A DNA stretch of 64,000 nucleotides from a virus (Duplodnaviria; Caudoviricetes), in IMG/VR virus record IMGVR_UViG_3300032321_001270, positions 1 through 64,000 of that record; one strand, written 5' to 3'. The notes below the pieces were generated by a model, which worked only from the letters and a program-made list of their open reading frames with translations, was not told the origin of the DNA and did no database searches. Of this stretch, positions 1-52,148 are shown piece after piece (the stretch's first letter is position 1; every line of letters starts with the position of its first letter). Made by a program: the position numbers and the translations under genes.

Positions 1-521
1 CCGCTGATCTCCTCGTACTGCACAACGCCGCTAGCGACGTTAGCAACACCAGCAGTCGGCAGGACAGCGTTGAAGGCGGCAATAAACTTGCCGTCCTCTT
101 CCGCCAGCATGTCCTTGATCATGTTGTCCGACAGAACCTGACGGATGTCGATGACATACGTACGCAGCTCGTCGACGTCCTTCACAGCGCGGGGCGACAC
201 GATCCGGTCAAACATGACGCGGTAACGCGGGCCACGGATGTAGAAGTTAATCGGGAGCGTTGCGAACGGAAGCGACACGGCCGCCGGGGAATCGGGCTCT
301 TTGTCCACAACCTTGACGGGCTTGTCAGTATCAACCTGACGGTCAAGCTCGTCGTTGGTGATGGTTAGCGGCGGCATGATCCGCCGATAGAACCCGTCTT
401 CACGCATTTTGGTGCGCGTGAAGTCGTTAACTGCATCAACGGCCTGCTTCTGCATGCCGGGGGTATCAAGCTGCTCAAAAAGCGTCTCGTTGAGCAGTTG
501 GATTTCTTGCTGAGTGGGCAT
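1..521 (-). CDS. Major capsid protein, probable HK97 fold (runs off the window edge; missing from the ORF track)
   Basis: Manual translation: MPTQQEIQLLNETLFEQLDTPGMQKQAVDAVNDFTRTKMREDGFYRRIMPP...DKPVKVVDKEPDSPAAVSLPF...KDVDELRTYVIDIRQVLSDNMIKDMLAEEDGKFI. GGAGG RBS at 530-534. Last gene of a protease-scaffold-decoration series. Confidence 0.7.
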   Translation of the reverse strand, partial: MPTQQEIQLLNETLFEQLDTPGMQKQAVDAVNDFTRTKMREDGFYRRIMPPLTITNDELDRQVDTDKPVKVVDKEPDSPAAVSLPFATLPINFYIRGPRYRVMFDRIVSPRAVKDVDELRTYVIDIRQVLSDNMIKDMLAEEDGKFIAAFNAVLPTAGVANVASGVVQYEEIS

Positions 522-560
522 TTTGGGAACCTCCATGTTCCTTAGTTAGTTAGGGATAGG

Positions 561-3060: not shown

Positions 3061-4521
3061 TCATGTGACATAATTTTGCAATACACAGTGGTTGGCTGTC
3101 AACCAATTGTTTCCATATTTCTCGCAAATCGTGGCGAAGGCAGCAATCTTATACAACGCGTAATGTTGCGCAAGAGCTGTTTCGGCTTTTCCACTCGCTT
3201 GTTTGTTACACGGAAACTCATCAGCCCGAACATCGCGAAGAACCGCTAAGTAAGCGCGCTTCTCTACGTTGTTGGGTAATACGCTATGTGTGTGTGCTAC
3301 TTTTTCCGCCCACACGCGCACGCTTGTTGGTGCAGCATCGGCGGGGTAGTACACGTTGTTCTCAAGCAACGAAACAACATCAACGTCGTTTGCTACTTTT
3401 GAAAATACATTAGGCAGTGCGTAAATCACTGCACTAATAAGTCTCGCGTCGGCTGACTTAACTGTCAACGCCAAAAAATCTCGCACAGGCAAGATTACTC
3501 CGGCGTCGGCCAGCCCTCGCAACACTTCAGACATTTTAACAGATGGGCAGCTATTTACATCAAGAGCCTGTTGCACAGCAGAGTGGCTGGCCAGAGCGGT
3601 CTGCGCCCAACTGCCACTTTCAGCCGCGGACTTCTCGGCCTGCGATAGTTGCGTTAACGCTTCTAACTGAAGTTGCATTCGCTTGCTGGGGATACCGCCG
3701 ACGTCAAATCCAATAGGGGCTGTAATACCCAGTTGTTCAGCTAATTCAACGCCCGATAGGCATGTGCCGCTGGAAGCTACTTTCTGTAGTTGCCCAGAAA
3801 CGTAAGCAATACGGTCAGCCGGGCGGAATACATGGCTGATATCAAAAAAGCTGGGATTCGGGTTGTCGGCGTGCAGTACATGACCGTCAGCCATTACCCG
3901 GCCAATGTTGTGCTTTAATCCGCCAGCCTTGCAGTGGCCGCCGTTTTCAACAGAGTCACAGTACTCAGCCCTTGTTTTGGCTGTATTGCCGCATGACGAG
4001 CACTTGTCGAACGGAATCTTGCAGGCCATCGACACGGCGATTTCTTTATCGTCAGCGAGCTTTTCTAGTTCCTTGTCGGCCACCAGACCACCATTGCGGT
4101 CGGCAGCCTCTTTCGATCCGTTGAGCGCCACCACCAGCTCAATTCGGCGCATTGGTTCGTGGTAGGCGCTGGCTTTTACGATGCCGAATGATTTAGCGGG
4201 GTTTTTATTTGCGTGGTCGCGATAAAACCGGGCGTATTTCTCAAACGTGTGGTGATAATTTCTGCAGCAATCCCGAGTAAAGCCGTCACCGTTGCGATTT
4301 GGGCCGTAGTCTTCGGTGGCGCCGATTGCAATCATGTGAACCGGAACTTCGTCCTTGGCAAACTTGATATTTTCAAGTTTGTGCGCAAATTCTGCACCTG
4401 CACGTTTAACAAGCTCTTGTTTGTCGGTACCGATAATCCCGCGGCTGGAAATCTTGATCAGCGCGGCGACCGGCTCACTAAAGTCTTGGGCGTGCGGCTG
4501 AATTACTTTGATCATGCTCAT
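3061..4521 (-). CDS. Putative prohead (capsid maturation) protease with Cys cluster
   Basis: NGDGF, FYRDH and AVSMACKIPFDKCSSCG motifs resemble phage prohead proteases; position upstream of scaffold/capsid; start re-called at MSMIKV. Confidence 0.6.
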   Translation of the reverse strand: MSMIKVIQPHAQDFSEPVAALIKISSRGIIGTDKQELVKRAGAEFAHKLENIKFAKDEVPVHMIAIGATEDYGPNRNGDGFTRDCCRNYHHTFEKYARFYRDHANKNPAKSFGIVKASAYHEPMRRIELVVALNGSKEAADRNGGLVADKELEKLADDKEIAVSMACKIPFDKCSSCGNTAKTRAEYCDSVENGGHCKAGGLKHNIGRVMADGHVLHADNPNPSFFDISHVFRPADRIAYVSGQLQKVASSGTCLSGVELAEQLGITAPIGFDVGGIPSKRMQLQLEALTQLSQAEKSAAESGSWAQTALASHSAVQQALDVNSCPSVKMSEVLRGLADAGVILPVRDFLALTVKSADARLISAVIYALPNVFSKVANDVDVVSLLENNVYYPADAAPTSVRVWAEKVAHTHSVLPNNVEKRAYLAVLRDVRADEFPCNKQASGKAETALAQHYALYKIAAFATICEKYGNNWLTANHCVLQNYVT

Positions 4522-4523
4522 AG

Positions 4524-5507: not shown

Positions 5508-6887
5508 TTATAGCAACTCTCGTGCTTTGGTTTGAGCTTCAATGTTGCTCTTCAAACTCTCGGCGCGCAACTTTTCCATCTCAATCAGCTGCTTCACATC
5601 AAAGTCTGCGAGTTGGCCAGCTTCTAAACGTTTACGGAGCATGGCCTGCATGGCTGCGCCCGAACCAGTAAAATTTGGCGCAATTTCGGCAATCTGGTTG
5701 TAGGCCGAAGCGATCTCGTGGGGGTCGTAACCAGAAATAACCGGGTCGTTCAGGATAAGGTCGTTTAAAACTCCGCGCGACTTGATCTGCTGTAGCTTGT
5801 TTTCGTGGTCCGCATCCGACATGTTTAAGAACGCTTTACGTTTTTGACTTTGCGGATCTGTGGCCTTATCTTCCTGCGCACCCAACTCTGAGGCTAAACC
5901 GCCCGGGCTCATGATCTTGCCAAGATTCCCCATGGTTCCGCTATATGATGTCATCGGCGGGGCGCTGTTTGGTTTTTTTTTAACTACTTCCGCCACTTTG
6001 AGCGCTAACGGAGCTGTTCTGGGGTCGTGGAGGATGGAGCCAGTAACAACAGCCGGCGCCTCTTTTTTCACAGGCACAGACGATGTTTTTTGCGTGGCAA
6101 CCTTGTTTTGTGCGTTGTTATACAGGTCTACGGCGCTGATGACTTTTTCTACCAACGTTACAACCGGCAGGTTACCAAAGTAGTTCTCTTTGGTAGCCGC
6201 TTGTTTTTCAACGTACGGATAGACGGCCGCAACCTTCTTCAATACCGACACGCCCGTATCGCCTAACCGCAGGCCGACTTCGCGCACGGCGTCATTAAAC
6301 GACATGTTGCCCGGGACACGAAAATACTGGCACAGTTCTTCCATCTGGGCGGCAGCCTTCGTGTGCGCCGTGGTGGCCTGTCGGCGCAGTTCTTCAGCTG
6401 CGCGCTTTTCCGCCTGCAACTGGCTGTACATGCGTCGGGCGGCGGAGTGCTCATCACGCGGAGCCGGCGTAAACGTTTTCTCGGGTAACACAGCCCGGGC
6501 GGCGGCTGCCTTCTCAAGCTGCGTGTTATGACGCAAAATGAAACCCTTGGGCGATACGGCATATTCAGTAGAGATAACAGAGTTCCGCACAATCTCGGCC
6601 GATGTCTTTACCTGCGACGGATACAGCGCTGCCATAACAGCCTCTGCGTCCGCTAGTTTAAAATCTGCAGCCTTTTCAAGCGTGTCGTTGCCGTGCTCGC
6701 GTTGCTTGTTCGTGCGGCCGGTGTTGTAGGCGTGCACCATAAGATTGATGTGCCCGGCCGGAATGCTCGCTTCCGATGCGCTTTTAATAATGGCGGCATT
6801 CGGGTCAGCGCCCTCGTTTACAAGAGTCGCCGCACGCTCGATAGCGCCGATCAGTTTTTGCTCAGCTTCTTTACTTAGTGCCCGCAT
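5508..6887 (-). CDS. Hypothetical virion-associated protein with K-x-A motifs
   Basis: Helical; EKAA, KTSA, EKQAA; start re-called at MRALSK with GGAG RBS. Confidence 0.55.
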   Translation of the reverse strand: MRALSKEAEQKLIGAIERAATLVNEGADPNAAIIKSASEASIPAGHINLMVHAYNTGRTNKQREHGNDTLEKAADFKLADAEAVMAALYPSQVKTSAEIVRNSVISTEYAVSPKGFILRHNTQLEKAAAARAVLPEKTFTPAPRDEHSAARRMYSQLQAEKRAAEELRRQATTAHTKAAAQMEELCQYFRVPGNMSFNDAVREVGLRLGDTGVSVLKKVAAVYPYVEKQAATKENYFGNLPVVTLVEKVISAVDLYNNAQNKVATQKTSSVPVKKEAPAVVTGSILHDPRTAPLALKVAEVVKKKPNSAPPMTSYSGTMGNLGKIMSPGGLASELGAQEDKATDPQSQKRKAFLNMSDADHENKLQQIKSRGVLNDLILNDPVISGYDPHEIASAYNQIAEIAPNFTGSGAAMQAMLRKRLEAGQLADFDVKQLIEMEKLRAESLKSNIEAQTKARELL

Positions 6888-7818
6888 CGGTTTTCTCCGG
6901 GAAGTGCAGTTCTTGGATCGAGGCTGTATTCTGCAAAGAACCGCCAGCCGCAATAACCATCATTTCGTCGTTACGTAATTCTGCTGGCCCGTCATCAAAG
7001 GGTAACATTTTTATAGCTACCGAATCCAGTTTCGTCCCCACTTTAAACGGCAAGGACGACAGCATAGCCCCGATATTCTCGACGATAGTGGCGTGTGATT
7101 TAGAGGCGTTATCGCTGTTTTTCTCGATCTCTACATATTTTACAAAAGAATCGATCAGCGGTAACTGGGTATGAGTATTTACATTAATGCTGAGACTGGC
7201 AATGGCCGCTTTGTACTTCATGCAACTCACGGCCATGTCTTGGAAAAAGCCGGAGACGCCATCAGTACCATCCGGCCGAGCAATATCTGCGAACTTTTGG
7301 ATCACAGCGTTTAAAACGTGTGGCCCGCCCTTATACCCGAGCAGTTTCCACAAAAGGTCATAATGACGTTCCTGTAGCCCGCGGGTAACTGCGTCAGACA
7401 GCACAACGTTTATGATGTAATCCGGGTGTCTCAGTTTTTCCCGGACGTCAAAAAACGTGTTTGCGTACGCGCCCACAATTTCAGGGTTTGTGCCAAGTTT
7501 TTCGGCAATTTCGTCGTCTGACTCGCCCGCCAAGATGCGCGCTTCGATACCCCAACGTGTCGGCGCTTTTTCGTCCGACCAGATCGAATGCGCCCAAAAT
7601 AGGTCTCGGTCCCGCTGCAACATTGCGTACATCGCTTCGGGTCGACTGTTCGCGCGTTCAAAATGCCGCTTCAGTCGCACCGCTTTACGAATCCACGTAA
7701 ACCCGTCCGGCCCGTCAATTGCGCGGGACGCACGAAAACCGCCGCCGTCAATTTGTACAGCGCGCAACCAACGCCAGTGCGGAGCACGACGCGGATTGTC
7801 CCGCAGAGCGTTAAGCAT
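6871..7818 (-). CDS. Hypothetical protein
   Basis: Long ORF overlapping both neighbours; start re-called at MLNALR. Confidence 0.55.
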   Translation of the reverse strand: MLNALRDNPRRAPHWRWLRAVQIDGGGFRASRAIDGPDGFTWIRKAVRLKRHFERANSRPEAMYAMLQRDRDLFWAHSIWSDEKAPTRWGIEARILAGESDDEIAEKLGTNPEIVGAYANTFFDVREKLRHPDYIINVVLSDAVTRGLQERHYDLLWKLLGYKGGPHVLNAVIQKFADIARPDGTDGVSGFFQDMAVSCMKYKAAIASLSINVNTHTQLPLIDSFVKYVEIEKNSDNASKSHATIVENIGAMLSSLPFKVGTKLDSVAIKMLPFDDGPAELRNDEMMVIAAGGSLQNTASIQELHFPEKTDAGTK

Positions 7819-20614: not shown

Positions 20615-20971
20615 TTACCTTTCTGGCCGATAAAGACGTAACTTCTTGTTTGTCTTTGCCCGCGCGGCGTACGCCTTATACGCTGCCGCCAGTTCGCGAG
20701 CCTTCAGATCCTCTTCGTCGATGTCAGGCTCGGTGAGCTTGCCGGCTGCATGACCGGCTAACCCGCCACCAATCGTTGCCAGCATCAGCGGCGCGTAGGC
20801 CACATTGCTGACGGCTTTCCACGAATCAGACAGGGACGGGAGTTCCAGCGCCGCTTTTACAAATGCTTCCGCGGCGTTAATGCGCTCAGATAGGCCGTTT
20901 CCGGCAAGTTTTTCTTCGGCGCAGCGCTGCAGAAAACCCAGTTTAAAAGCTTCTTTTTCTGTGACATCCAT
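20615..20971 (-). CDS. Small virion-associated protein with a Gly-rich hydrophobic segment
   Basis: Start re-called at MDVTEKEAFKLGF; VKAA; GGGLAGHAAG. Confidence 0.5.
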   Translation of the reverse strand: MDVTEKEAFKLGFLQRCAEEKLAGNGLSERINAAEAFVKAALELPSLSDSWKAVSNVAYAPLMLATIGGGLAGHAAGKLTEPDIDEEDLKARELAAAYKAYAARAKTNKKLRLYRPER

Positions 20972-35619: not shown

Positions 35620-37845
35620 TTACATCTGCGGACCGGACGGCATGCCCGGCGCCTGATCGTAGTAAAACGGGTTGCGCACATTGGGCACGTACGACCGTGC
35701 CGTTTGCGCTGCGTTGTTCACGCCGCGGCGAACATTGTTTGCGGTGTTAACAACGCTGTTTCGGGCTGTGCCGTATGCGGTACCGGCGGCATCGCCGATT
35801 GCTGAGCCAGCGGTATTGAACGCGCTACCAATCAAATTTCCGGCTGAACTCGCAGCGTTTCCGGCTGAACTTGCGGCGTTGCCAACGGCGTTGCCAGCGG
35901 ACGATATGGCGTTGGTCACGCCCTGCACACCAGCGCCAATGTCGTTTGCGGCTTGATTGTAAATATTACGACCAAACTCTTGCGCGTGATTCACATATGG
36001 CTGCGCAGGCGACGAGTTTCCAAGGCCATATGCGCCAGCCCCGGCTAACATCGTGGCGCCAAGCGGACTCTTGTTTGCGACATACCGCGCACCCGTGCCG
36101 GCCCCGCGGGCCACGGTACCGGCCCCCTGCATACCGTAGCCGAGCGCAGCTTGTGCGCCGCCGGCCATCGTCTTGGCAGCGCCCATGCGTCCGCCCTGCT
36201 GCAGGCCGCTGCGGGCCATGTTTACGCCGCCCTGCGCGAGCGTGTTTCCGCCGCTTGTCATAGCGCCGCCGACCATTTGCGCACCCCGACCGACACCAGA
36301 CACGCCTTTCTGCGCCGCGGCTCCAACCGCGCGGCCTGCGCCGGAAGCCATGCGACCCACCCCGCGAGCAAGTGCCCCAAGCGGTACGGCTACTTTTTCA
36401 TGCGGCTGCTGGTTGTTCTTTGCGTCAGTCGGCACCGGGCTGTTTGTTTCGCGTTGCTTGTCGTCGATCATCTTTTTGCTACCACGCGATGACGGCTCTA
36501 GCGTCATCTGTGTTTTACCGCGAGCAGCACTCGACACAGCTTTCTTCTCTTTCTTGTCTTTCTTCTTCTTGCTACGAGCTGGCCGGCACGAGTCTTCGCT
36601 GTACGGCTTCTTGCCCGGCACCGGTTCGTAACCAGCCCAGCACCGCGCAAACTTCTCGCCAAACTCGCGCGCAGAACCCTGCTTGACGCCATTCGTGCTG
36701 CTGGCCTGTAACTGCGGCATCAGCTGCTCGATGATATTGCGGTTGTGCGTCAGGAAGTCATACGTTTGCCGGCCCTGTTCGCTGCTCATGTTGGGATCGC
36801 GGCCCATGAGCATCGTGGTGCCGAACTCTGGACTTAACTTGCCCAGCGCGTTGATCTGATCCATGGGGTTATTGCTGTTTCCGCCGCCAAGCATGCTGTA
36901 CAGGCCGTTGGCGCCCTGTCCAACCAATCGCCGCGGGCCGTCGCCGAACATACCGGCTCCTGCAGCGCCTAAACCAGCCGCACCCAGACCAAGCGCACCC
37001 ATCGCGCCACCCAGTCCGGCATTGCCGCGGCCGCCCATGTATGCGCCAGCCAAGGCCAGCGGAACACCGGCGCCAATCGCGTAGCGCGCTTCGATCGGCA
37101 GGCTATTCCACATGCCCATCAAGCCGCCGCCGTGCCCAGCTTCAGCGTGCTGGCCCTGCATAAGCTGCGTGTTCAATTGTTGGTTATTGATATTTGCCGT
37201 CGACGGCTCAGCGGCGTCATTGCCGCCCAGACCTAAAGCCTGACCGCCGTAATGCAAACCGGCAGCGCCGGCGCCAGCGCCAACTGCAAGGTTCAGCGGA
37301 TTGCGCGCATTCGTCATCGCCGACGTGCCGCCACCCAGATAGTCAGGAATGTTTTTGGCCATCGCTTGCGTGCGGCCCAGCGTCTGATCGCCGAAACGTT
37401 GTCCGGCGGCGCGCGCATCACGACCCATGGCATACTGCGCCAGATCGTCAGCTTTGTTTAGGCCGCGGCGCGCTGTATTCATGACGCCCTGACCGAGACC
37501 GCCGACAGCGTCCAACGCACCACCAGCTAACTGACCCGGCGTGCCGTGATACAACGACGCGGCCTGTCCACGGACTGCACGGCCCGCCGCTTCCATACGA
37601 CTAGGTGCCGCGGGCTTGGCCGCCAGCGGCACGGCTTTGTAGCGATCTTTCAGCGGAATGGTCAGCGGATCTACAACATTTTTTTGCATACCGCGCGAAA
37701 AACCACGTGTCGCCGCTGTGCCTTTTGCTGCCGCTCGCTGCGCTGTGCGCCTGACGGCATCAACGCCCTTGTTCACGTACTGGCCGACGTTAATTGCGTC
37801 TTTTTCCATTGCACCAGTAAGTTGACCAAATTCATAAGGCGTCAT
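35620..37845 (-). CDS. Large Gly/Ala-rich virion-associated protein with MTPYEFG leader and a CWxGY module
   Basis: MTPYEFGQLTGAMEKDA start; internal SAREFGEKFARCWAGYEPVPGKKPYSEDSCRP; several GxxxG hydrophobic stretches. Confidence 0.6.
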   Translation of the reverse strand: MTPYEFGQLTGAMEKDAINVGQYVNKGVDAVRRTAQRAAAKGTAATRGFSRGMQKNVVDPLTIPLKDRYKAVPLAAKPAAPSRMEAAGRAVRGQAASLYHGTPGQLAGGALDAVGGLGQGVMNTARRGLNKADDLAQYAMGRDARAAGQRFGDQTLGRTQAMAKNIPDYLGGGTSAMTNARNPLNLAVGAGAGAAGLHYGGQALGLGGNDAAEPSTANINNQQLNTQLMQGQHAEAGHGGGLMGMWNSLPIEARYAIGAGVPLALAGAYMGGRGNAGLGGAMGALGLGAAGLGAAGAGMFGDGPRRLVGQGANGLYSMLGGGNSNNPMDQINALGKLSPEFGTTMLMGRDPNMSSEQGRQTYDFLTHNRNIIEQLMPQLQASSTNGVKQGSAREFGEKFARCWAGYEPVPGKKPYSEDSCRPARSKKKKDKKEKKAVSSAARGKTQMTLEPSSRGSKKMIDDKQRETNSPVPTDAKNNQQPHEKVAVPLGALARGVGRMASGAGRAVGAAAQKGVSGVGRGAQMVGGAMTSGGNTLAQGGVNMARSGLQQGGRMGAAKTMAGGAQAALGYGMQGAGTVARGAGTGARYVANKSPLGATMLAGAGAYGLGNSSPAQPYVNHAQEFGRNIYNQAANDIGAGVQGVTNAISSAGNAVGNAASSAGNAASSAGNLIGSAFNTAGSAIGDAAGTAYGTARNSVVNTANNVRRGVNNAAQTARSYVPNVRNPFYYDQAPGMPSGPQM

Positions 37846-37995
37846 GGGTTTGTTCCTGTGTTGCTTCTGGTTTTGATATTTTTTCGGGGTACGTGCAGCG
37901 GCCGCCTTCGCAGCAGGTTTCAAGGATGATGCGGCAAAACGGACACACCAGTTTGCCGCGGATCTCAATCGCCGGGCTTTCGCACAACGGGCACA

Positions 37996-38616
37996 TTACC
38001 ACTCAAACTCAACCGGGTTTTGTGTCTTATAACCAAAGTTAATGTCAATCGGCGACTTTAACTTCACGCCGGGTAGCGGCAGTTTTGGCGCCACAGCGGC
38101 GGTGCCACCCAATAAACCAGCGGCGGCCAAAGTCGGCACGCCATAATGCGCGCCAGCAAGATTCTCAAGCTGCCGGCCGCCAAACTGTAGCGCATCACCG
38201 GCAAAGTTTGTGACGTGACCGGCACCGCGCGCTGTTCGACCGCCCAACCTAACACCGTGCCCAAGCAACGCCATTAGATCGCGCGAGACACCCGATGTGC
38301 CGCCCGAACCGCGGATCATGCGCTCGCCACCCTTCATAGCCTCGCGTCCAGCCGAGAGCGCCAACCCGCCAAGACCCTGCGACGAACCCATGCCAGCCGC
38401 TGTGTTCTGGGCCGCGCCACCGACCAACTGCCCGGCGCCTGTCATACCGCGGCCAAAACCTTTGACGATGTGTTTGGAACCCTGATTCACCGTCTGGGCG
38501 CCGCGGGCAATGCTAGAACCAACGTTCTGCAGTCGCGCGCCAAGGCCACCCCAATTGATCGCCTGTTTTTCGAGCGTTCCAATTTGAAATCCAAAGTCAA
38601 ACGGCGTCATGTGCAT
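37996..38616 (-). CDS. Gly-rich protein with MTPFDFG...EKQA leader
   Basis: Leader similar to neighbours; amphipathic Gly-rich body. Confidence 0.6.
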   Translation of the reverse strand: MHMTPFDFGFQIGTLEKQAINWGGLGARLQNVGSSIARGAQTVNQGSKHIVKGFGRGMTGAGQLVGGAAQNTAAGMGSSQGLGGLALSAGREAMKGGERMIRGSGGTSGVSRDLMALLGHGVRLGGRTARGAGHVTNFAGDALQFGGRQLENLAGAHYGVPTLAAAGLLGGTAAVAPKLPLPGVKLKSPIDINFGYKTQNPVEFEW

Positions 38617-38629
38617 ACCTTTCTGCTAT

Positions 38630-39280
38630 TTAAAAGCTCATCATTGGATTGTTTAACTGCGGCGGCTGCATAGGTTGCATCGGTTGCCCGCCAGCACCCA
38701 TCGCCATTCCCGCCAGCGAGCCAGCTGTTGTAGCCAGCGGCGCCATCTGCATGGTCTGCATAGGATTCTTGATCGCGGCGTTCCAGACTTTGCCGCCCAC
38801 GCCCGGATTCTGAGCCAGCGGCGCCACTTTCTGGACACCCTTGGACATGGCTTGGTTCACGCCGGTCATCATCTTGCGGCCGCGATCCACGAATTGGACC
38901 GAACCCGACGACAACGCGCGGCCGGTTTGTTTCATGCCGGCCCGAGCCAGCGCGCGGCCTGCCGACACGCCAGCGCGGCCGGCAGCTCCAGCAGCAAAAC
39001 CAAATCCCGGCAGAAAGCTCAGGGCGCCATTGAGTACAGACAGCCCGGCTTGCCCAAAGCGGCCGTTGTATAAATGCCGTGTTGTATCGTTTATCGCAGT
39101 GGGCACGCCCGTGATCGGATTGGAATACAACGCCACGTCCTGTACCAAGCCGCGTTGGGTGGGATCAAACTGCCCCATCGCGCCGCCTGTGCCGAACGCA
39201 ATCTCGTCGCCGGTCTCGCCAAACAGTGCGCGCTTCTCTAGCTGCACACCGACACGGTAGCCGAACTCGTAAGGCTGCAT
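38630..39280 (-). CDS. Gly-rich protein with MQPYEFG...EKRA leader
   Basis: Start re-called (GGAG RBS); leader similar to neighbours. Confidence 0.6.
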   Translation of the reverse strand: MQPYEFGYRVGVQLEKRALFGETGDEIAFGTGGAMGQFDPTQRGLVQDVALYSNPITGVPTAINDTTRHLYNGRFGQAGLSVLNGALSFLPGFGFAAGAAGRAGVSAGRALARAGMKQTGRALSSGSVQFVDRGRKMMTGVNQAMSKGVQKVAPLAQNPGVGGKVWNAAIKNPMQTMQMAPLATTAGSLAGMAMGAGGQPMQPMQPPQLNNPMMSF

Positions 39281-39397
39281 AGTTACTTGCTCCAAAAAAC
39301 ACACGCGAACGCCCCACACCTGACTCGGTTCCGCTTCGGTGAGGAGTTTGTGACAGGAAACCGAAAAAACATCCCCTCGCTCGCGTGTGTTATTTTG

Positions 39398-39931
39398 TTA
39401 TTTTTGGCACTCCCGGCTGCAGCGAAACACGAGCGAATACCGCGTGTCCGCCACAGGACAGATTTCATGTTTCCAATTGTAGCGGATTTCGTCGCGCATT
39501 TGTACAAGGCTTCGGGGCGGGAGTTCTACAGAGAATGAGCGCTCTTCGTGCGTAAATACCATTGTAGCCGGAGTGACGAGGCTTAAAACCGTGATTACCG
39601 CGCCGCCTGCAGGGGCATCAATGTGCGGCAGAATAACTTGTTTTTTTAGATACTGATTAAGCGTAATTGAGTCTGGCCGTATCTCTACCAGTTTTTGTTC
39701 TACGAGGCGGTCCAGCAAAAATTCAAAGTGCGCCGGTATTGTAGCTGACAGCCGATCGTTGCTGTACGGCACCGCAGAACCCCAACGTTGAACCACATTG
39801 CGCCCTTTGACGTGGTGCCGTTTATGTCCTGTGGGGATGCCCGCCTCAATACAGGTTATTAATGTCTGTTCTTCTTCTGCCGAGATAAACTCTGGGATCA
39901 ACGCAAGTGTGCCGACGTCCGTGGGAAGCAT
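39398..39931 (-). CDS. AlkB-family 2OG-Fe(II) dioxygenase
   Basis: LNQY...PHID (HxD), WKHEI (distal H), RYSLVFR. Confidence 0.85.
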   Translation of the reverse strand: MLPTDVGTLALIPEFISAEEEQTLITCIEAGIPTGHKRHHVKGRNVVQRWGSAVPYSNDRLSATIPAHFEFLLDRLVEQKLVEIRPDSITLNQYLKKQVILPHIDAPAGGAVITVLSLVTPATMVFTHEERSFSVELPPRSLVQMRDEIRYNWKHEICPVADTRYSLVFRCSRECQK

Positions 39932-39943
39932 AAGGCGCTCCAG

Positions 39944-40324
39944 TCACCGGCGATACTGCGCACAACGGCGATTCCGGTGCATATCTCGCCGAAAGGCCGC
40001 GGCCATCTTGCGCACGTCCTTGTTGTAGCAATGATAATTAAAAAAGTGCCCAAACATGAAATGACACGATGTTTCGCACAACGTAATTAAATTGTGCTCA
40101 ACGAGTTCCAGTTCCGGCGCAATGCTCACTGGATAAATATGATGCACGTTTAAATTCGTCGTGCGACCGCAGACTTCACAAACGGGGTGCTTCGCTAGGT
40201 GTTCAGCCCGCACCCGTCGCCATGCGCCTGCGCGTGCCCGCAAATCGAGGATGTGCCGGGGTCGCAGCCAGAGGGGCAAGAAGCGTTCGACGGCGTGCCA
40301 GCAGGCAAGAAAAATGGCACGCAT
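39944..40324 (-). CDS. HNH endonuclease
   Basis: CEVCG...VHHIYP...NLITLC...CHFMFGH. Confidence 0.85.
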   Translation of the reverse strand: MRAIFLACWHAVERFLPLWLRPRHILDLRARAGAWRRVRAEHLAKHPVCEVCGRTTNLNVHHIYPVSIAPELELVEHNLITLCETSCHFMFGHFFNYHCYNKDVRKMAAAFRRDMHRNRRCAQYRR

Positions 40325-40443
40325 GGCATAACTTTCGTGCTGCCGCAGTGATACGGCGGGTCATACGGGCAGTTCTGGCATTTGCGACCACAACACATTT
40401 GCTGCGCTAGTAAAAACTCCCGGGACAGAGGCTGCGGGCTCAT
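40195..40443 (-). CDS. Small Cys-rich protein (DUF5522-like)
   Basis: CCGRKCQNCPY motif; the C-terminal part overlaps the HNH gene. Confidence 0.45.
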   Translation of the reverse strand: MSPQPLSREFLLAQQMCCGRKCQNCPYDPPYHCGSTKVMPCVPFFLPAGTPSNASCPSGCDPGTSSICGHAQAHGDGCGLNT

Positions 40444-40793
40444 AGCACGGTCGAAGCGTGCGTGAATTTTTTTTCGTAGTGGGCGTAAATGTCAGCGTAG
40501 GCCACACCCCACGCGGCATCATGCGCGAGCTTGTTGAACGCCTCGTCGTCCGCGGCGTTATCCAGCCGGTGGTTCCACGCCCGCGCATGCGCCCACTCGT
40601 GGATTAAAACATCCATGGAACGCGACTCGTCCAGACTCTTGTCGATCTGGATGTGGAACTTCTTGCCCTGTTTCCAGCAGCGGCCCTCTAACTTGGAGAG
40701 CTTGACGCGGCGAACGCTCACGGGAAACGCCGCGGGGCACTCTTTTTTGAGCATCCGCAGGAGGGCGTTGTAATACTTAAATCGAGCCGCCAT
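40440..40793 (-). CDS. Small HExxH zinc metallopeptidase-like protein
   Basis: VLIHEWAHA...HD..WG; start re-called at MAARFK (GGAGG RBS). Confidence 0.6.
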   Translation of the reverse strand: MAARFKYYNALLRMLKKECPAAFPVSVRRVKLSKLEGRCWKQGKKFHIQIDKSLDESRSMDVLIHEWAHARAWNHRLDNAADDEAFNKLAHDAAWGVAYADIYAHYEKKFTHASTVL

Positions 40794-40880
40794 GCTCCGT
40801 CCTCCTGAAGGGCGTCCTTGCCGCAACAGGCTGATTATACAGGGCCGGAGTTACGTTTGTCGCATCAGGTTTTTAGCTTG

Positions 40881-40998
40881 TTTTAGTGCGCTTGAAGCGA
40901 CGCAGCCGTGTGATAGGATCGCCGAAGCAACCTGATCTTTGACGCGAGCGCCGAAGCTTCCGAGTCATTCTGGCGACGTCGCTTCAAAAGCACTAAAA
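40881..40998 (-). ncRNA. Candidate structured RNA element
   Basis: 20/22-bp terminal inverted repeat enclosing two C(UUCG)G hairpins on the minus strand. Confidence 0.4.
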
Positions 40999-41823
40999 CG
41001 TAAATTGAAATTTTGAAAGTTGTCGATACGGGGCTACGCCGGCGGGCGGATTACCGTCGGGCGGCGGTGAAAACGGATCCGGCCACGGTTGAAATATCGG
41101 GCGACATTTTATCGTTTGCGAGGGCGGACCAAACAAGTACGGATGTTTGGCTGTCGTATCTGGGTTTGTCACGGCAAAGCAGAAATAAAACGACAGCGAC
41201 AACGCCGTGCGTTTTTTGTTGCCCATGCGCGGACACACGATAGGAAATTTTCGCCGTTTGCCGTTGCCGGAGCCGCTGTCTGCCCACGGAATGCAATTAA
41301 TCGGAAAATCTTCTTTGGTGGGAATGCGCGCTTCTTCCAACAGCCAATAAAACTCAAAAACGTTAAATGCGTTCAGCAAACATATTTCGTACGGCCTAGG
41401 TTTGCGCGTGAGTCGTTCATCATGCACTTCAAACCGAAACTCAGTGTGGTACGTTTTTAAAACGCTAACAGGCCCGCCGGGTCCCGCGCCTCTGGGCCCA
41501 GCGCCACCCCAAAACGGCGTGCCGTTTGTGCCGTCATAATACCGTGTATAGTGCGGCGGATGTACAAACCGCCGCCGCTTTTGACGCTTACCGCCGCTCT
41601 TGCCGCGTTCGGCACGTTCGGCGAATAGCCAGACTCTGCTTGTCGCCAGCCACTCCTGCGTGCTGGTCTGTTCGTACGAGATGCCGATTTCCGGTACGTC
41701 GGGATGGTCGCGGCGCAATAGCGTCACTTTCGGGGCCGGGATGATCAACGGCAAGCCCGCGAGGTCGTGCGCCGACACGCTGGCGTTCTTGATGTTTCGA
41801 CCGCCAAAATTGATTTCATTCAT
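40993..41823 (-). CDS. Hypothetical protein
   Basis: 276-aa ORF; no recognised motif. Confidence 0.5.
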   Translation of the reverse strand: MNEINFGGRNIKNASVSAHDLAGLPLIIPAPKVTLLRRDHPDVPEIGISYEQTSTQEWLATSRVWLFAERAERGKSGGKRQKRRRFVHPPHYTRYYDGTNGTPFWGGAGPRGAGPGGPVSVLKTYHTEFRFEVHDERLTRKPRPYEICLLNAFNVFEFYWLLEEARIPTKEDFPINCIPWADSGSGNGKRRKFPIVCPRMGNKKRTALSLSFYFCFAVTNPDTTAKHPYLFGPPSQTIKCRPIFQPWPDPFSPPPDGNPPAGVAPYRQLSKFQFTF

Positions 41824-41847
41824 AACACAAACTTTCGGCTATTGTTA

Positions 41848-42615
41848 TTATGCGTTTCCGGCATTTTTCTGCAGCTGCGCTAACACAGCCGCCGCGCTCT
41901 TTTTAACGTCTTCGTCGCCCGAGTCTTCAGACTTTTCTTCTTTTTCGGCCGACTCTTCCTTGGGCTCATCATCTTTCTTTTTCTTGCCAATGCTCGCGCC
42001 GATGTTGCCACCCAGATGCGCGCCGGCCCCGAGGCCCAGTGCGCCGCCCGAGAGCAGGCCAATTCCGGCGCCCGGTCCGCCACCCAAAGCGCCGCCTGTG
42101 AGCGCGCCCATCAGGCCGCCGCCCACACCGCCGGCCAAGCCACCAACACCAGCGCCCAAGCCACCGCCGAGGGAAGAAAGCAGCGAGGCCGTCTTGGGTT
42201 GTTCCCACGACGGTTTGCCTAAAATCGCGCTGGTGCCGGCATAGCCAGCACCGCCCCCGACTGCAGCACCAGCCGGAGCGCCCATGCCGACGGCGGCCAC
42301 CAGCTTGCCAAGGTTCTCGCGGTTGCGCTGATTCATATCAAAACGACGTGGAATTTTAATCCCGCCGCGCGGAACCGGCAGCCGCTTGCCTTTCATCAAC
42401 ATCATCGCCGCCAGAATACCAGCCGGAATACCCGCCACAGCGCCTAAGCTCGTGCCCGTAGCTTTCGCCGCACCACGGCCAGCGCCTTCCATGCGGTGGC
42501 CTTCCGGCGACGTGACTGCGCCCAACCCGGCGCCGATCAGGCCCGGGCCTAAAAACGCCTGCTTGCCCATGGTCTTGCCAATCTGCATGCCAAACTGTTG
42601 CGGAGTTGCGGCCAT
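41848..42615 (-). CDS. Glycine-zipper protein with ATPQQFG...GKQA leader
   Basis: Start re-called at MAATPQ; long GGLGAGVGGLAGG zipper after PKTAS; acidic tail with KKSAA. Confidence 0.6.
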   Translation of the reverse strand: MAATPQQFGMQIGKTMGKQAFLGPGLIGAGLGAVTSPEGHRMEGAGRGAAKATGTSLGAVAGIPAGILAAMMLMKGKRLPVPRGGIKIPRRFDMNQRNRENLGKLVAAVGMGAPAGAAVGGGAGYAGTSAILGKPSWEQPKTASLLSSLGGGLGAGVGGLAGGVGGGLMGALTGGALGGGPGAGIGLLSGGALGLGAGAHLGGNIGASIGKKKKDDEPKEESAEKEEKSEDSGDEDVKKSAAAVLAQLQKNAGNA

Positions 42616-42718
42616 TCTGTCACCTGTGGCTTGAATAGAGTTTTGAATTTTTTTACTGGCTACGTGTTGAACGATCTTCTCGAACAGCTTGCGCCGCGAC
42701 AGCATCAGCGCCGTGAGT

Positions 42719-44881
42719 TTAGCGGTCGGGAGCGGCGGCATCAGCAGGCTCGTCGTCAAGAATACTGGGCGATTTCTTGGGCGTCGCTGTTGGGTATTTT
42801 AACAGCTTGCGGCGTTTCTTTGGAAGCGGCCGATTTGCGGCATCTGTTATTAACTTAAGCGACTTGAAAACCGCGCTTTCTTTCTCTTGGGTTTCAGGCT
42901 CGGGCTGCTGGCGTTTGAGATACTTCTGTAACTCCTGCTCCTGATATGCCTGCAGCATCGTTTTGATATCATCTTTTTTGGCTGGCGATACTAACTTGGC
43001 CGGATCAATGGCCCAGTGCTGCAGCGCCCAACCCCGGCGTGGCGACGGGCTCTTCATAAACGGCCCGCCATGGCGTGCTTTGAAGCTCGCCCAGCGCTTA
43101 ATCTGCCGGGTGTCTTCGTCTGGAATCCTGCGGCCGGAGTTATAGTTCTGATACCACTCCAGCCAGCCCTTGGGATCATGCTCGGTGACCCACTCTGGCT
43201 TCCACTCGCCCAAGCTGGCTAAGCGCGGGCCCTCTTGTTCATAGAGTGACTTGTACACACCCATGCGATGCAATTGGCCGGGTGTAAAATCTGGTTGAAA
43301 GTCCGGCAGCTCGGCGCTGGTCTTTACGCCGTGCTCGTCTTGGTAGCGCGTGCCTTCGTCGCGCAAGATCCGGCGAAACTCCTCGTTGAACTGTTCTTTC
43401 TCGTCGGCCAAGTGCGCCAGTACTTCGTCGCCGGTGCGCTCGCGCTTGTAGCCCAAGAATTTCCCAAGCATGCTGGGATCTTCCGAGGCGCTAAGATATC
43501 TTTGCACGAGCACGTTCTTGAGTTCTTCGGGCAAACCGACGTGCGAGTCAAAGCGCAGACCACGACCACGAGCTTGCTGGCTGCGCGATTCATGCCAGTG
43601 CGGGTCTAAGAGCTGAATAAGACTGGTGCCCTTCGTGGACAAGCCTTCAGCGCCAGCCGGGCCAATGAGCAACGCGCGTAACTTCCCGGCGTTGTATGCG
43701 TCGACCGCTTGCTGGCGAGCTTTGGGAGAAACACCGCCATGAAAGAACCCATAGGGAATCTTGGCTTTCTCTAGGCCGGCTGCGTACGGCGACAAGCCAG
43801 AGTCCACGAAGTTGGAATAGATAATCGCCTTCTTGCGTTTGTCACTCTTGAGCGTGTCCTGCAGGTTTTTGAACGCCGTCTGTAATTTTGCGCTTTGCTG
43901 GAACGCCTTGGCCGGATCTTTGTCGGCGCGAAACGGCTGCGTGGACAGACTTACTTGGCGCAGCCCCGACATGAAGCTGTTTAACTTGGCGAGTTCTTCC
44001 TTGGACAGCGGAAACTCTTGGTCCAGTTTCCATAAGAACCCCGGCGGAATCTTCGTGCGAATCGCTTTCTGGATCTTCTGCTGTTCGCTGCTCAGGGGCA
44101 CGCGCACGACTTGCTCGTTGACGTTCACGCCATCAGGAGTCTTGCTGGGCTGATAATCCACTTTGCCGCGTAACAAGCTGCGCAGTTCAGCTTCGTTCTT
44201 CACCACTGGTTTAACGCCGGGCTTCGCACCCCGCAGCCAACCAAACAGCCCCGGCCGCACGGTCTTCTGACCGACGTAGCGCTTCTCGAATTCTTCCGGT
44301 GTGATCTCTTTGTTATTGAGCATGGACAACAAGTTCGCCAAGTCACTGGGCGAATTGGTGACCGGCGAACCCGTTAATAACAAGAGGCGCTTGGCGTTGG
44401 CGGCGGCTTCGGCAGCACTGTATGAACTGGCGCTGTTGGGATTACGAAGCCTGTGCGCCTCGTCCATGATCAGTGTGTCGGGCTGCTGTTGAAACTTCTT
44501 GCCCAAGGCCAGCCCCGTGTAACTCATGATCTCGGGATTGGAGTTGCGCGTAAACTTGCCGATTTCTTTCTCGAAATTACCCCGCAAGCTAGCTGGAACC
44601 ACGATACCGTAGTCTTCGCCGGTCTCTTCCTTGGCTTTCTCGGCCGCGGCAATGCTAGAGAGCGACTTCCCTGACCCCAAACCGTGATAGACGAGCATGC
44701 GGGGATCGCCACTAGTCAGCCGGTCGGCAATGCGCTGCTGATGTTCCTGCAGCTGGATATTTGGGTCCAGCTCGGCCTGTTTGTCGGCCAAAATGCTCGG
44801 ACTGGCTGACTTATCGGCCCATGTTCGCACGGCGGCCACAAGATCGACCGGTAGCTGCGCCGTTTTGTTATTTGTATCCAT
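42719..44881 (-). CDS. SF2 (SNF2/NPH-I-like) helicase fused to a C-terminal DPKGWLEWY domain
   Basis: HGLGSGKS (I), MDEAH (II), LTGSP (III), GAEGLS (V), QARGRGLR (VI); C-terminal DPKGWLEWY...GRRIPDEDTRQIKRW. Confidence 0.85.
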   Translation of the reverse strand: MDTNNKTAQLPVDLVAAVRTWADKSASPSILADKQAELDPNIQLQEHQQRIADRLTSGDPRMLVYHGLGSGKSLSSIAAAEKAKEETGEDYGIVVPASLRGNFEKEIGKFTRNSNPEIMSYTGLALGKKFQQQPDTLIMDEAHRLRNPNSASSYSAAEAAANAKRLLLLTGSPVTNSPSDLANLLSMLNNKEITPEEFEKRYVGQKTVRPGLFGWLRGAKPGVKPVVKNEAELRSLLRGKVDYQPSKTPDGVNVNEQVVRVPLSSEQQKIQKAIRTKIPPGFLWKLDQEFPLSKEELAKLNSFMSGLRQVSLSTQPFRADKDPAKAFQQSAKLQTAFKNLQDTLKSDKRKKAIIYSNFVDSGLSPYAAGLEKAKIPYGFFHGGVSPKARQQAVDAYNAGKLRALLIGPAGAEGLSTKGTSLIQLLDPHWHESRSQQARGRGLRFDSHVGLPEELKNVLVQRYLSASEDPSMLGKFLGYKRERTGDEVLAHLADEKEQFNEEFRRILRDEGTRYQDEHGVKTSAELPDFQPDFTPGQLHRMGVYKSLYEQEGPRLASLGEWKPEWVTEHDPKGWLEWYQNYNSGRRIPDEDTRQIKRWASFKARHGGPFMKSPSPRRGWALQHWAIDPAKLVSPAKKDDIKTMLQAYQEQELQKYLKRQQPEPETQEKESAVFKSLKLITDAANRPLPKKRRKLLKYPTATPKKSPSILDDEPADAAAPDR

Positions 44882-45752
44882 CCGGCGTCCCTGTCGGTTC
44901 GGCGCGTTGGCTGGCGATAGGATCAGAGCCCGTCGTGGCTTGTGCGGCCAGTGCCAGCTCGTATTGCTTGATCTGCGATTCTACCCAATTCACATACAAA
45001 CTAATACGGGTGAACCCAGACTCGTCGCCGTATGTGCCGTCAGGTTTTTTGTCTTTGGCCATGAGAAACGAGTTAATTCCCGCTAACTTATTGCCAATAA
45101 ACATGCCGCCGCCAGAGTCGCCGGGGGCAATCATAAACTCTAGTGGAAATCGCCCAACGCCGCTGGTGGGAGAGCACACCAGCACGCCGCGCTCTTGGCC
45201 GTCGATCTTATTGTGCCCGGCGCGGCGATGGCCGTCAGACGATGTGCAGCCCGTGTGAAACGTGCCGTGCAGGCCGTAGCCGGAGAACGTAATTGCTTTG
45301 CCCAGCTCGTCGGAATCTCGGTACAGCTCGGGGTAAAACTCGGCCTTGAAGTCTTCCGGCGAATAACCCAGCGCCAGATCATAAAAGCCAAAGTTATCGT
45401 CTTGAAAGTCTTTGTGCGCGATCACGGTCTGGAGCGGAAACGGCTTGTCTCGGCCTTCGCGCAAGATGGCGGGCTCGGTGGTGTCTTTGACCACGTGGGC
45501 TGCGGTCAAAATCCAGTGCGGGCGAATGATCACCGCTGAGCCGTACTGGGGATGTTCTTTTAATTTGCATTCAGGCTTGTCGCACGTGGTATTGGCCCGG
45601 ATGCGCACCACGTTGGGAAACTGCTTGCCAAACTCGACGTATTTTTCATCTGGGGTGTTTGGATCGATCGTTCCCGCGGTCGCAAAGCGCGTGGATACAA
45701 TCACAACGATCACAAAGCGAAGCAGGCGGGCTAGAAATTCTTGCACATCCAT
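44868..45752 (-). CDS. Exported trypsin-like (S1) serine protease
   Basis: WILTAAH, YDLALG, GDSGGG; N-terminal signal/TM. Confidence 0.85.
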   Translation of the reverse strand: MDVQEFLARLLRFVIVVIVSTRFATAGTIDPNTPDEKYVEFGKQFPNVVRIRANTTCDKPECKLKEHPQYGSAVIIRPHWILTAAHVVKDTTEPAILREGRDKPFPLQTVIAHKDFQDDNFGFYDLALGYSPEDFKAEFYPELYRDSDELGKAITFSGYGLHGTFHTGCTSSDGHRRAGHNKIDGQERGVLVCSPTSGVGRFPLEFMIAPGDSGGGMFIGNKLAGINSFLMAKDKKPDGTYGDESGFTRISLYVNWVESQIKQYELALAAQATTGSDPIASQRAEPTGTPDGYK

Positions 45753-48278: not shown

Positions 48279-48307
48279 ATATGACCGTTTTTTGCCCGAT
48301 ATTTAGC
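48279..48307 (-). promoter_or_regulatory. Phage-specific promoter-like motif, copy 1
   Basis: Minus strand GCTAAATA-N12-CGGTCATAT, 81 nt upstream of the 48198 start. Confidence 0.65.
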
Positions 48308-50654: not shown

Positions 50655-52148
50655 TCAGCGCTGGGCCGCCGGAACGATGCCCTGCAGCTGGCCCCACGTT
50701 CTGGCGTCGGTTGTCGGGCCGCCCCACGCAGTCAGATTTGTGCGAATCTTGTCGCCGGTGATCGTGTTGCTCATGTTTCGGCGCCCCATGCCGGCCATAA
50801 CGCGCTCGAACCTAGCACTTGCGTCAGCCAATGCCTGCTGGGCTTGTTGCGTATCGCCAAAGCGCGGAAAACCACCGGGAGCAGCGCCGGGCATACGCAT
50901 CCGTGCCGTAGGCGCTTGTGCCGGGCGCTTGTTTGCGCGCATGAGATAATTATGCACGTTTTCCATGATGTCTGGGTGGCGCATTAAGCTCTCACCGCGG
51001 GCTGCAGCGAGCGGGCCAGCCACAGACGGATGCACGTTGGCGATGTTTAACTTGGGGGCTACAGCCTTGGCCGCCGTATTAGCTACGGCCTTTGCGCCAC
51101 CACCAAATAACCGACCAAGGCCGCCAAAGTTGAGCCCGGCTTCTTTGCCAAACTCATACGCGCTGGAGCACTTGCAGTTCCATTTGCGCAGGGATTTATT
51201 AATGCGCGAGTCTGGGTCTTTCTTTGTATCGGCGCCAGTGTTTACGCGTTTCATGCCACACATCCGGGAGCAAAAAGAGTTCTGGCGCTTGGCCCGATCG
51301 CCTTTAGGATTGCTCTCGGTGACGGGTGCTTTCAGGTGGCCGCCCGTGGCTTTGTTATAGCTGGCGCGCCCCTTGGCGTTGAGGCCGCCTTCGTCATTCT
51401 TGCCGGCAGATCGTTGCCACGCAGGTGTGCCGGCCAGCTTTTCGCCGCCTGCTGAGTTCGCTGTACCAAGGGCGGCATTGCCATTGATATCACCCGTCGT
51501 GGACAGCCCGCCAAAGGCATTGATCGGGTTGGCGTTAGCCGAGTTTCCACCGCCTACAGGTGGCAGTTGACCCTCGGCGCCGGTGGGAGCAGGGGTAGCC
51601 GGGCTGGCGGCCTGCTGGGGCGCCTGTGGAGCTTGTGACTGCATCCCCATGGGCAGGGGCGTACCCATCGCGGGCATGGCGTATCGCTTAATTCCGGCGT
51701 TTGCAGGCACCATGGCGGCATCGCGGGCCTCCTGTTCAGCCTTTTCGTTCTCTAAAGCCTGCTGGATGGATTGCGATAACACTGCAGAAAGCTTCGCCAT
51801 CAAGCTGTTTACGCCGGTTTTGGGCATATTTCCACACCCACACGAATCCTGCTTGGTTTTCTTTACTTCTGTCTGTTCTTGGCCCGCATACGTTGGCTTT
51901 TCCCCCTGCGGCATAGCGACTCGGACCTCTGTAACCCCACTTTTCTTCAAGAACTTGGCGTAAATATCGAGGGCGACGGAGTTTACAGCAGATTGTTTAT
52001 TGTTTGTTTCCACAGGTTCGTCCTTTTTATTCTTATGCGCATACAGGGGGAGCTTTTTCTGGTTTGGATACTCATGCGCCCAGCGTTTCGCAATATCTGG
52101 ATGCTCGGCCCAGAGAAATCTGCGCTGCTTTTCTGACTTGAATGGCAT
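50655..52148 (-). CDS. Modular virion-associated protein (MPFKS N-terminal module, DUF6321-like module, K-x-A motifs)
   Basis: MPFKSEKQRRFLWAEHPDIAKRW; EKLA then AWQRSAGKNDEGGLNAKGRASY...SFCSRM...SRINKSLRKWNC; SAYEFGKEAG. Confidence 0.6.
   Translation of the reverse strand: MPFKSEKQRRFLWAEHPDIAKRWAHEYPNQKKLPLYAHKNKKDEPVETNNKQSAVNSVALDIYAKFLKKSGVTEVRVAMPQGEKPTYAGQEQTEVKKTKQDSCGCGNMPKTGVNSLMAKLSAVLSQSIQQALENEKAEQEARDAAMVPANAGIKRYAMPAMGTPLPMGMQSQAPQAPQQAASPATPAPTGAEGQLPPVGGGNSANANPINAFGGLSTTGDINGNAALGTANSAGGEKLAGTPAWQRSAGKNDEGGLNAKGRASYNKATGGHLKAPVTESNPKGDRAKRQNSFCSRMCGMKRVNTGADTKKDPDSRINKSLRKWNCKCSSAYEFGKEAGLNFGGLGRLFGGGAKAVANTAAKAVAPKLNIANVHPSVAGPLAAARGESLMRHPDIMENVHNYLMRANKRPAQAPTARMRMPGAAPGGFPRFGDTQQAQQALADASARFERVMAGMGRRNMSNTITGDKIRTNLTAWGGPTTDARTWGQLQGIVPAAQR

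Follow-up and report, generated by a model that had tools for sequence, protein, structure and literature searches.

The first 64 kb (64,000 nucleotides [nt], hereafter the window) of IMG/VR record IMGVR_UViG_3300032321_001270 belong to an uncultured phage, the contig of which is a single sequence of 205,188 base pairs (bp). The genome encodes its own RNA polymerase, tRNAs and tmRNA, and the minus strand carries nearly all genes of the window. The closest cultured relatives, Salmonella phage Arash and Pseudanabaena phage PA-SR01, are very distant (approximately 33% identity in the SNF2 helicase). Four genes of the window, here named A, B, C and D, have in common a short segment, the leader. 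This segment is real, clade-specific and under selection at the protein level. The genes, their leaders and a small gene between them are listed below (aa, amino acids):

35620..37845, minus strand: gene A, 741 aa, Gly/Ala-rich, with hydrophobic Gly-zipper-like stretches
37795..37845, minus strand: leader of A, aa 1-17, ending in MEKDA (leader hidden Markov model [HMM], E 6e-6)
36646..36675, minus strand: internal degenerate leader in A, aa 391-400, SAREFGEKFA, directly before RCWAGYEPVPG
37832..38002, minus strand: small zinc-ribbon-like gene, 56 aa, CxxC...CxxC...CC..C, between B and A and overlapping the start of A
37996..38610, minus strand: gene B, 204 aa
38560..38610, minus strand: leader of B, aa 1-17, ending in LEKQA
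38630..39280, minus strand: gene C, 216 aa, with a body unrelated by sequence to those of B and D
39227..39280, minus strand: leader of C, aa 1-18, ending in LEKRA
41848..42741, minus strand: gene D, probably 297 aa from the ATG at 42741 (255 aa if from 42615)
42556..42615, minus strand: leader-type motif of D, MAATPQQFG...MGKQA (leader HMM, E 1e-7)

Detection and conservation of the leader

The leader is 17-20 residues long and follows the pattern x-P-[YFQ]-[EQD]-F-G-x-x-[VI]-G-x(2-4)-[EG]-K-x-A. The sequence-only reading from which this analysis started had placed it on the minus strand at the starts of A (37845), B (38610) and C (39280) and at a Met of D (42615), and all four motifs are present at these positions. 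It had proposed a profile search of the genome and its relatives, and this search bears it out: only A-D are matched in the genome, and relatives keep the motif. The leader HMM was built from relatives alone, with the window sequences excluded, and was run against the 2818 six-frame open reading frames (ORFs) of the 205-kb genome. It matches exactly four ORFs, A-D, with E values from 1e-7 to 7e-5; the next-best match has an E value of 4.6.

Thirteen related loci were fetched from IMG/VR with the helicase as bait, and the motif is kept in every A, B, C and D orthologue in the loci holding those genes. Across 41 aligned leaders, F and G never vary and conservation of the second G is 90% or higher; F-[GI] is kept in 41/41, and K-x-[AS] is found at residues 9-26 in 40/41 (11% background). 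Variants among the orthologues include MNAYEFG and MND.Q.FG, and those of A keep F-G or F-I together with E-K-x-A. The leader profile matches three to five genes in each of five whole related genomes, always within the A-D cluster. When the profile was searched against 1.84 billion representative proteins, 10 matches were obtained at E <= 0.001, all of them members of B-, C- or D-like families; eight lie at the N-terminus as called, and two D-like matches lie at residues 43-70, behind the extension of D described below. As these are just 10 matches in the same families, the leader is not widespread. Neither blastn of the region nor tblastn of B against 50,697 phage records gave a match, and at E values up to 10 the leader profile matches nothing in the complete genomes of Arash and PA-SR01.

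Leader codons vary chiefly at their third positions (27 vs 16 and 10 at the other two), which indicates selection at the level of the peptide. When assessed for a positive N-region, a hydrophobic core (10 residues or more) and a site of the A-x-A or lipobox type, the leader has no features of Sec, Tat or lipoprotein signal peptides: it is acidic to neutral and has no hydrophobic run. It is predicted to form an amphipathic helix on the basis of a low-confidence model of B.

Organization of genes A to D

Scans of A-D with Pfam and PHROG profiles found nothing beyond a weak tape-measure-like tail on A (phrog_58 and phrog_1535, E 3e-4, aa 633-723); the Pfam scan of A gave no match. A starts at its leader Met, as stop codons interrupt the frame of A upstream of this Met in relatives. 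The sequence-only reading had also pointed to an internal echo of the leader, SAREFGEKFA, in A. This echo is genuine: in one related locus (L013), a separate 274-aa gene at 3891 begins with a full leader followed by the RCWAGYEPVPG segment (74% identity over 31 aa), and the echo is homologous to this true leader. Because L013 encodes both halves as separate genes, A is best described as a fusion of two leader-bearing modules.

B consists of the leader, a Gly-rich helical region, a hydrophobic segment and a conserved C-terminal tail ending in EFEW. It has 20 homologues (38-59% identity), none with a Pfam domain. M1, F6, G7, E14 and K15 are invariant in the family alignment, and G11 and A17 are at least 90% conserved. 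An AlphaFold2 model of B is of low confidence (predicted local distance difference test [pLDDT] score of 51); residues 3-17 are modelled as a separate helix that ends at K-x-A, with a break at 18-19. A language-model search with B was uninformative (best score 0.81). The zinc-ribbon-like frame between B and A is conserved in seven of the eight relatives examined, and the upstream frame of A is interrupted by stop codons in five of those relatives; this 56-aa gene probably goes unannotated. C is distinguished by its leader, which is the most conserved 20-residue window among C orthologues.

D comprises a basic extension of 42 aa, the motif, transmembrane (TM)-like and Gly-zipper segments, an acidic tail and a conserved C-terminus (VKKSA...LQKNA); its orthologues range from 191 to 686 aa. 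The extension is conserved and in frame, with third codon positions varying most (57 vs 33 and 22). Relatives also differ in the Arg codon that precedes the internal Met, which is either AGA or CGN, a synonymous change. The motif of D is thus probably internal, at approximately residues 46-62 of 297. In a single relative (L011), the extension is absent and the motif Met is the true start, behind the same AGGTG that precedes the internal Met elsewhere. This AGGTG is conserved and Shine-Dalgarno-like, and could give a second, shorter isoform of D. D and the SNF2 helicase gene overlap (42719-42741): the helicase stop codon comes 20 nt downstream of the ATG at 42741, an arrangement that suggests translational coupling. 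The original description of the element as N-terminal therefore holds for A, B and C, which start at the leader Met, but not for the copy in D or for the one buried in the fusion gene A.

Relatedness of the bodies and other leader-like segments

The proteins had been described as otherwise dissimilar. This is correct for B, C and D, which have no significant similarity: after removal of the leader, hhalign probabilities are at most 2.4% for all pairs of the three bodies (B-C 2.4%, C-D 0.4%). A and B, on the other hand, are paralogous beyond the leader, with 39% identity between A 1-53 and B 1-56 and a second match between A 492-600 and B 48-148 (34% identity, E 1e-6). Homology along the bodies, as expected if the leader reflected simple duplication, is seen for A-B (E 1e-6) and is not detected for B-C, B-D or C-D (probability at most 2.4%). 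All four bodies are Gly/Ala-rich with hydrophobic Gly-zipper or TM-like stretches, and such low-complexity bodies may hide old homology.

Two further echoes had been proposed. The first lies in a 497-aa protein:

51135..51164, minus strand: possible compressed leader copy in the gene at 50655, SAYEFGKEAG (aa 329-338), followed by LNFGGLG

This segment resembles a compressed leader plus the next residues of B, but it is not significant by HMM; a DUF6321 domain lies upstream of it (aa 249-323). The second, EAFKLGF (nt 20953), is matched by no leader profile and is unrelated.

One relative carries an additional gene of 111 aa (L003:9046-9381), located between those for the protease and the helicase. 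Its N-terminus consists of a YEFG-type leader half, then IKLA, then a Pro/Ala-rich body.

A hydrophobic-x-K-x-A motif in head-module proteins

The leader ends LEKQA, MEKDA, LEKRA and MGKQA fit the pattern hydrophobic-x-K-x-A. Enrichment of this motif was assessed by comparing observed counts with per-protein shuffles. Genome-wide, 103 sites are present vs 75.7 expected, and the excess resides in a few proteins adjoining the capsid gene. The enriched proteins are listed here together with the capsid protein and g4524:

3..536, minus strand: major capsid protein, N-terminal part, with GMQKQA at residues 27-32; 40% identical to the Arash capsid protein
3061..4521, minus strand: candidate prohead protease (g3061), a conserved head-module protein of 486 aa with a helical C-terminal domain; 7 motif sites vs 1.06 expected in the frame 3061-4614
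4524-5504, minus strand: g4524, 326 aa, Gly/Ala-rich with TM-like segments and an N-terminal region ending in ATEKVAAV
5508..6953, minus strand: head-module protein, candidate core or scaffold (g5508), 481 aa; 7 sites vs 1.2 expected
9640-12045: g9640; 6 sites vs 1.4 expected
158006-159181 of the genome: 391-aa protein at 158 kb; 5 sites vs 0.72 expected

The sites are well conserved: all seven in g3061 are kept in four relatives, as are five of those in g5508, where six of seven are kept in at least three of the four, some of them forming islands that are more conserved than their flanks.

The same pattern is found in two distant cultured phages. In Arash (L017, gp218-225), the counts are 9 vs 0.74 for gp220 (p 1e-7), 8 vs 0.72 for gp223 and 6 vs 0.55 for gp225, and gp222 and gp218 are also enriched. 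In Vibrio phage D181 (L029), the enriched proteins are coding sequences (CDS) 275, 277 (the homologue of g3061), 278 and 280 (p 3e-4 to 5e-8), with counts that include 9 vs 1.0, 9 vs 0.69 and 5 vs 0.42. In both phages, the enrichment (p 1e-4 to 5e-8) surrounds a homologous protease-like gene, and the motif is not enriched in their RNA polymerase, helicase or tail genes. Overall, head-module proteins of three distant phages with one common protease-like gene are enriched 5- to 13-fold. In all three, G-hydrophobic-x-K-x-A also occurs approximately 25-32 residues into the capsid protein.

This distribution is like that of the T4 [LI]-x-E motif and the phiKZ/SPN3US A/S/G-x-E motif (PMC5694885), and we therefore read hydrophobic-x-K-x-A as a putative prohead cleavage site. 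From these sequence patterns we infer that it is the maturation cleavage motif of this lineage and that g3061 is the protease; as such, the motif is a candidate for a new prohead-protease cleavage code.

g3061 is 36% identical to Arash gp222, and its homologues occupy the gene slot before the capsid gene in D181 and in Bixzunavirus, where the homologue is the N-terminus of a large protein. His62 and Ser164 (counted in the 486-aa form) are invariant in this protein family. Language-model features of g3061 score 0.90 to the Peptidase_S77/S78/S80 clusters, which is a lead at most. Sequence and profile searches of PDB and a permissive Pfam scan with g3061 gave nothing. PF20034 and PF03420 have no match at E values up to 10; for PF20034 this is uninformative, as its control genomes gave no match with it either.

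One g3061 homologue (P0069, 862 aa, filed under Sphingorhabdus sp.) contains intein/Hint Pfam domains, and the helicase of one relative (L009:9908-13192) has an insertion of approximately 380 residues. Inteins seem to reside in conserved genes of the virion module in this clade. Sphingorhabdus is a possible lead to the host; the contigs of the clade come from freshwater samples.

Contig nt 1-920 match the last approximately 907 nt (genome 204282-205188) at only 86% identity. There are thus two slightly different versions of the N-terminal part of the capsid gene; in relatives this gene is present once. The contig ends are probably an assembly overlap of two strain variants, not a true terminal repeat.

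Glycine-rich head proteins and virion contents

In each of the three head modules, K-x-A ends the pro-region of a small TM-like protein rich in Gly: g4524 and its positional analogues Arash gp221 and D181 CDS 276. These proteins, together with Arash gp224 and gp213, resemble A-D in having a pro-region followed by Gly/Ala-rich hydrophobic segments; unlike A-D, they have no YEFG half and are encoded inside the head module. Arash Gly-rich proteins of this type have been found in virion preparations (PMC10585845). The Arash helicase gp217 and RNA polymerase are among the most abundant proteins of these preparations, the polymerase being the most abundant (PMC10585845), which argues that this lineage packages proteins.

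Comparison with known systems

The T4 capsid-targeting sequence (CTS), MKTYQEFIAE (PMC8442874), is found on unrelated internal proteins (PMC8442874, PMC3012670) and is removed by gp21 (PMC3012670, PMC5694885). It is sufficient to load foreign proteins, from which it is then cut off (PMC8442874, PMC3012670, PMC5694885). Like the CTS of IPI-III and Alt, the leader is a short N-terminal segment common to otherwise unrelated, fast-evolving proteins; the exceptions are the internal position in D and the paralogy of A and B. In their fast evolution and variable length, too, A-D resemble the internal proteins of T4. The leader may also end, as the CTS does, at a prohead-protease motif: its end fits the head-enriched hydrophobic-x-K-x-A. 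It differs from the CTS with respect to length (17-20 residues, not 10) and terminus, which is K-x-A where the CTS has [LI]-x-E. No member of the gp21 family (Peptidase_S77) is detected in this genome, and A-D are Gly-rich and TM-like whereas T4 cargo consists of small basic proteins.

The leader had been proposed to be distinct in sequence from the CTS, and it is: window leaders score at most 15 against MKTYQEFIAE, which is not significant, and none is among the 12 best CTS-like of the 228 N-termini in the genome (twelfth-best score 16). The A orthologues of two relatives (MTPQEFIA...) score 26 (p approximately 4.5e-4 per 20-residue window, with approximately 45 variants examined), a likeness that we regard as a curiosity and do not count as evidence. 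The best CTS-like score in the genome (22, about chance level) belongs to the N-terminus of the trypsin-fold protease, MDVQEFLA....

A second comparison is offered by the jumbo phages SPN3US and phiKZ, which have virion-packaged RNA polymerases and diverged paralogous bodies behind constant N-termini with protease motifs (PMC5694885). SPN3US gp53 and gp54, for example, are otherwise diverged paralogues with identical 15-residue N-termini that contain protease motifs (PMC5694885). Their motif is A/S/G-x-E and their protease belongs to Peptidase_S80; here the motif is K-x-A and S80 is not detected. Their propeptides are mostly longer than 100 residues, and their proteins are proven virion components whereas A-D are putative ones.

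Short common peptides that address proteins to an HK97-fold shell, or that are removed by one protease, are also known from encapsulin cargo-loading peptides and from Staphylococcus phage 80alpha, in which Prp cleaves N-terminal leaders off the capsid and scaffold proteins. The encapsulin peptides, however, are for the most part located at the C-terminus, and Prp belongs to the host; the sequences of both differ from the leader, and no homology is implied.

Interpretation and alternative explanations

Our tentative reading, to which we give somewhat less than an even chance, is that the leader would be a propeptide like the T4 CTS that ends in a head-protease site and is carried by Gly-rich, membrane-active internal or ejection proteins. 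The element would be a short amphipathic N-terminal pro-segment in two halves. The first, [YFQ]-[EQ]-F-G-x-x-[VI]-G, would attach the protein to the prohead core during its assembly; the second, hydrophobic-[E/G]-K-x-A, would be the cut site for the head-maturation protease of the lineage, and the segment would be removed after assembly. A-D would then be internal or ejection proteins that exit the virion together with the DNA. Support for this reading comes from the coincidence of the conserved leader end with the head-module motif in three lineages. The overlap of D with the helicase gene, the Arash orthologue of which is gp217, also favours it.

Several observations weigh against this interpretation. 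With respect to the locus, A-D lie outside the head module, between the helicase and PhoH genes, and their neighbours (HNH, SprT-like, 2-oxoglutarate [2OG] oxygenase and methyltransferase genes) are non-structural. The nearest promoter-like motif upstream of A-D (48279) is of a class, TAAA-N15-SGKCATAT, that has no copy in front of head genes. With respect to the virion, blastp detects no homology between A-D and the Arash Gly-rich proteins or g4524, and the Arash list of structural proteins is not clean evidence, as its 116 entries include primase and ribonucleotide reductase. No leader-bearing homologue was found among the cultured phages searched, and within orthologous families the conservation of the leader does not markedly exceed that of the body, C excepted. 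Part of its sharing is simple duplication, since A and B are paralogues. Internal copies in D, A and the 50655 gene imply that an N-terminal position is not required; given the internal copy in D and the copy buried in a fusion, the element is not strictly an N-terminal signal. With respect to the protease, the Pfam S77, S78 and S80 models match nothing in the genome. The predicted fold of the g3061 N-domain has a pLDDT below 50, the available homologues all being at least 68% identical, and this prediction is unusable, so that the protease assignment rests on gene position and the language-model score of 0.90. Finally, hydrophobic-x-K-x-A could be a helix-forming or binding motif instead of a cleavage site.

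A more ambitious version joins several claims: the leader would be a loading tag of two parts, a docking helix of the YEFG type and a cut site at K-x-A, in a widespread clade of uncultured phages of approximately 200 kb, usable as a portable tag and processed by an undescribed Lys-x-Ala protease family. The protease, shared with Arash, D181 and perhaps Bixzunavirus, would not cut after Glu, and the cargo of the tag would be membrane-active, Gly-rich ejection proteins travelling with the virion RNA polymerase and helicase. All of this together we consider rather unlikely.

If our tentative reading above is correct, the leader would be a second, sequence-independent case of the T4 principle, in which one short tag loads arbitrary proteins into a capsid, and would define both the cleavage code hydrophobic-x-K-x-A and a candidate gene for a head protease family missed by current profile libraries. 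This protease would be common to environmental jumbo phages and cultured Salmonella and Vibrio phages, in which it would be directly testable. The processed virion proteome would become predictable from sequence for hundreds of uncultured phages, and a handle for protein packaging in a non-T4 chassis would be gained.

The strongest alternative, unlikely in our estimate although to be taken seriously, is that the leader is a permanent, uncleaved amphipathic N-terminal helix of an old, locally duplicated family of Gly/Ala-rich membrane proteins. Such a helix would bind a common partner or the membrane, and the site of action would be the infected cell, where the proteins might serve envelope remodelling or superinfection exclusion, with no capsid loading. 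This would account for the sharing between A and B beyond the leader, for the common compositional type of all bodies with their TM-like stretches, and for a tandem of genes amid non-structural ones. The internal copies in D, A and the 50655 gene fit it as well, as does a leader that evolves about as fast as the body within families. Weak hints of kinship point the same way: B-D and B-C reach E approximately 0.02 in pairwise hhalign, and a B orthologue from L002 matches D at E 5e-6 in a tiny database. Against it, no pair among B, C and D has significantly similar bodies once the leader is removed. An uncleaved helix also leaves unexplained why the E-K-x-A end matches the head-module signature of three lineages, and the helicase to which D is coupled has an Arash orthologue that is plentiful in virion preparations. 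Were it correct, the leader would be a conserved helix of a fast-evolving phage membrane-protein family, which is of modest interest.

An improbable explanation is that the leader is a site for a co-encoded protease, with A-D directed to the envelope and without a role in head assembly. There are two candidates:

44868-45752, minus strand: trypsin-fold protease with an N-terminal signal-anchor-like segment
40440-40826: HExxH SprT-like protein

In every relative, both genes keep their synteny with the leader genes. Identity of the SprT-like gene is 75-91%, and its place is invariably between D and C. A Lys-directed enzyme would be in keeping with the conserved Lys of the motif. The SprT-like protein matches the Lys-specific Aspzincin_M35 weakly (E 0.0016), but both its SprT-like and its Aspzincin matches are below Pfam thresholds. 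The trypsin-fold (S1) enzyme has no Asp six residues before the catalytic Ser (...APGDSGG) and is therefore probably not Lys/Arg-specific. Moreover, the K-x-A enrichment is centred on head genes around a different protease-like gene, in Arash and D181 as well.

A nucleotide-level feature (a translation-initiation region or RNA element) or chance has almost no likelihood and was excluded: a 15-nt A-rich word, AAAAAA[AT][AT]TCAAAAC, does occur only twice in the genome, approximately 38 nt upstream of the A and D leader Mets, but it lies within coding sequence at both sites, internal and fused copies of the leader retain the amino-acid motif, the profile matches nothing else in the genome, and the third-position codon pattern effectively refutes such a cause.

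Gene neighbourhood

The order of the locus is conserved among relatives: trypsin-like protease, helicase, D, SprT-like, HNH, (2OG oxygenase), C, B, the 56-aa zinc-ribbon gene, A, PhoH, methyltransferase and ferritin-like. A 276-aa ORF between D and the SprT-like gene (40993-41823, minus strand) has no counterpart in the 13 related loci and no family match, and is an insertion specific to this genome.

The bipartite motif TAAA-N15-SGKCATAT is present in five copies in the window vs 0.01 expected, and in 6-7 copies in the genome:

48279-48305, 50624-50650, 53506-53532, 54851-54877 and 63405-63431, minus strand: copies in the window
162850 and 97444 of the genome: further copies

The copy at 48279 is the nearest upstream of the block that comprises a 656-aa gene (45787-47757), the protease, the helicase and D to A.

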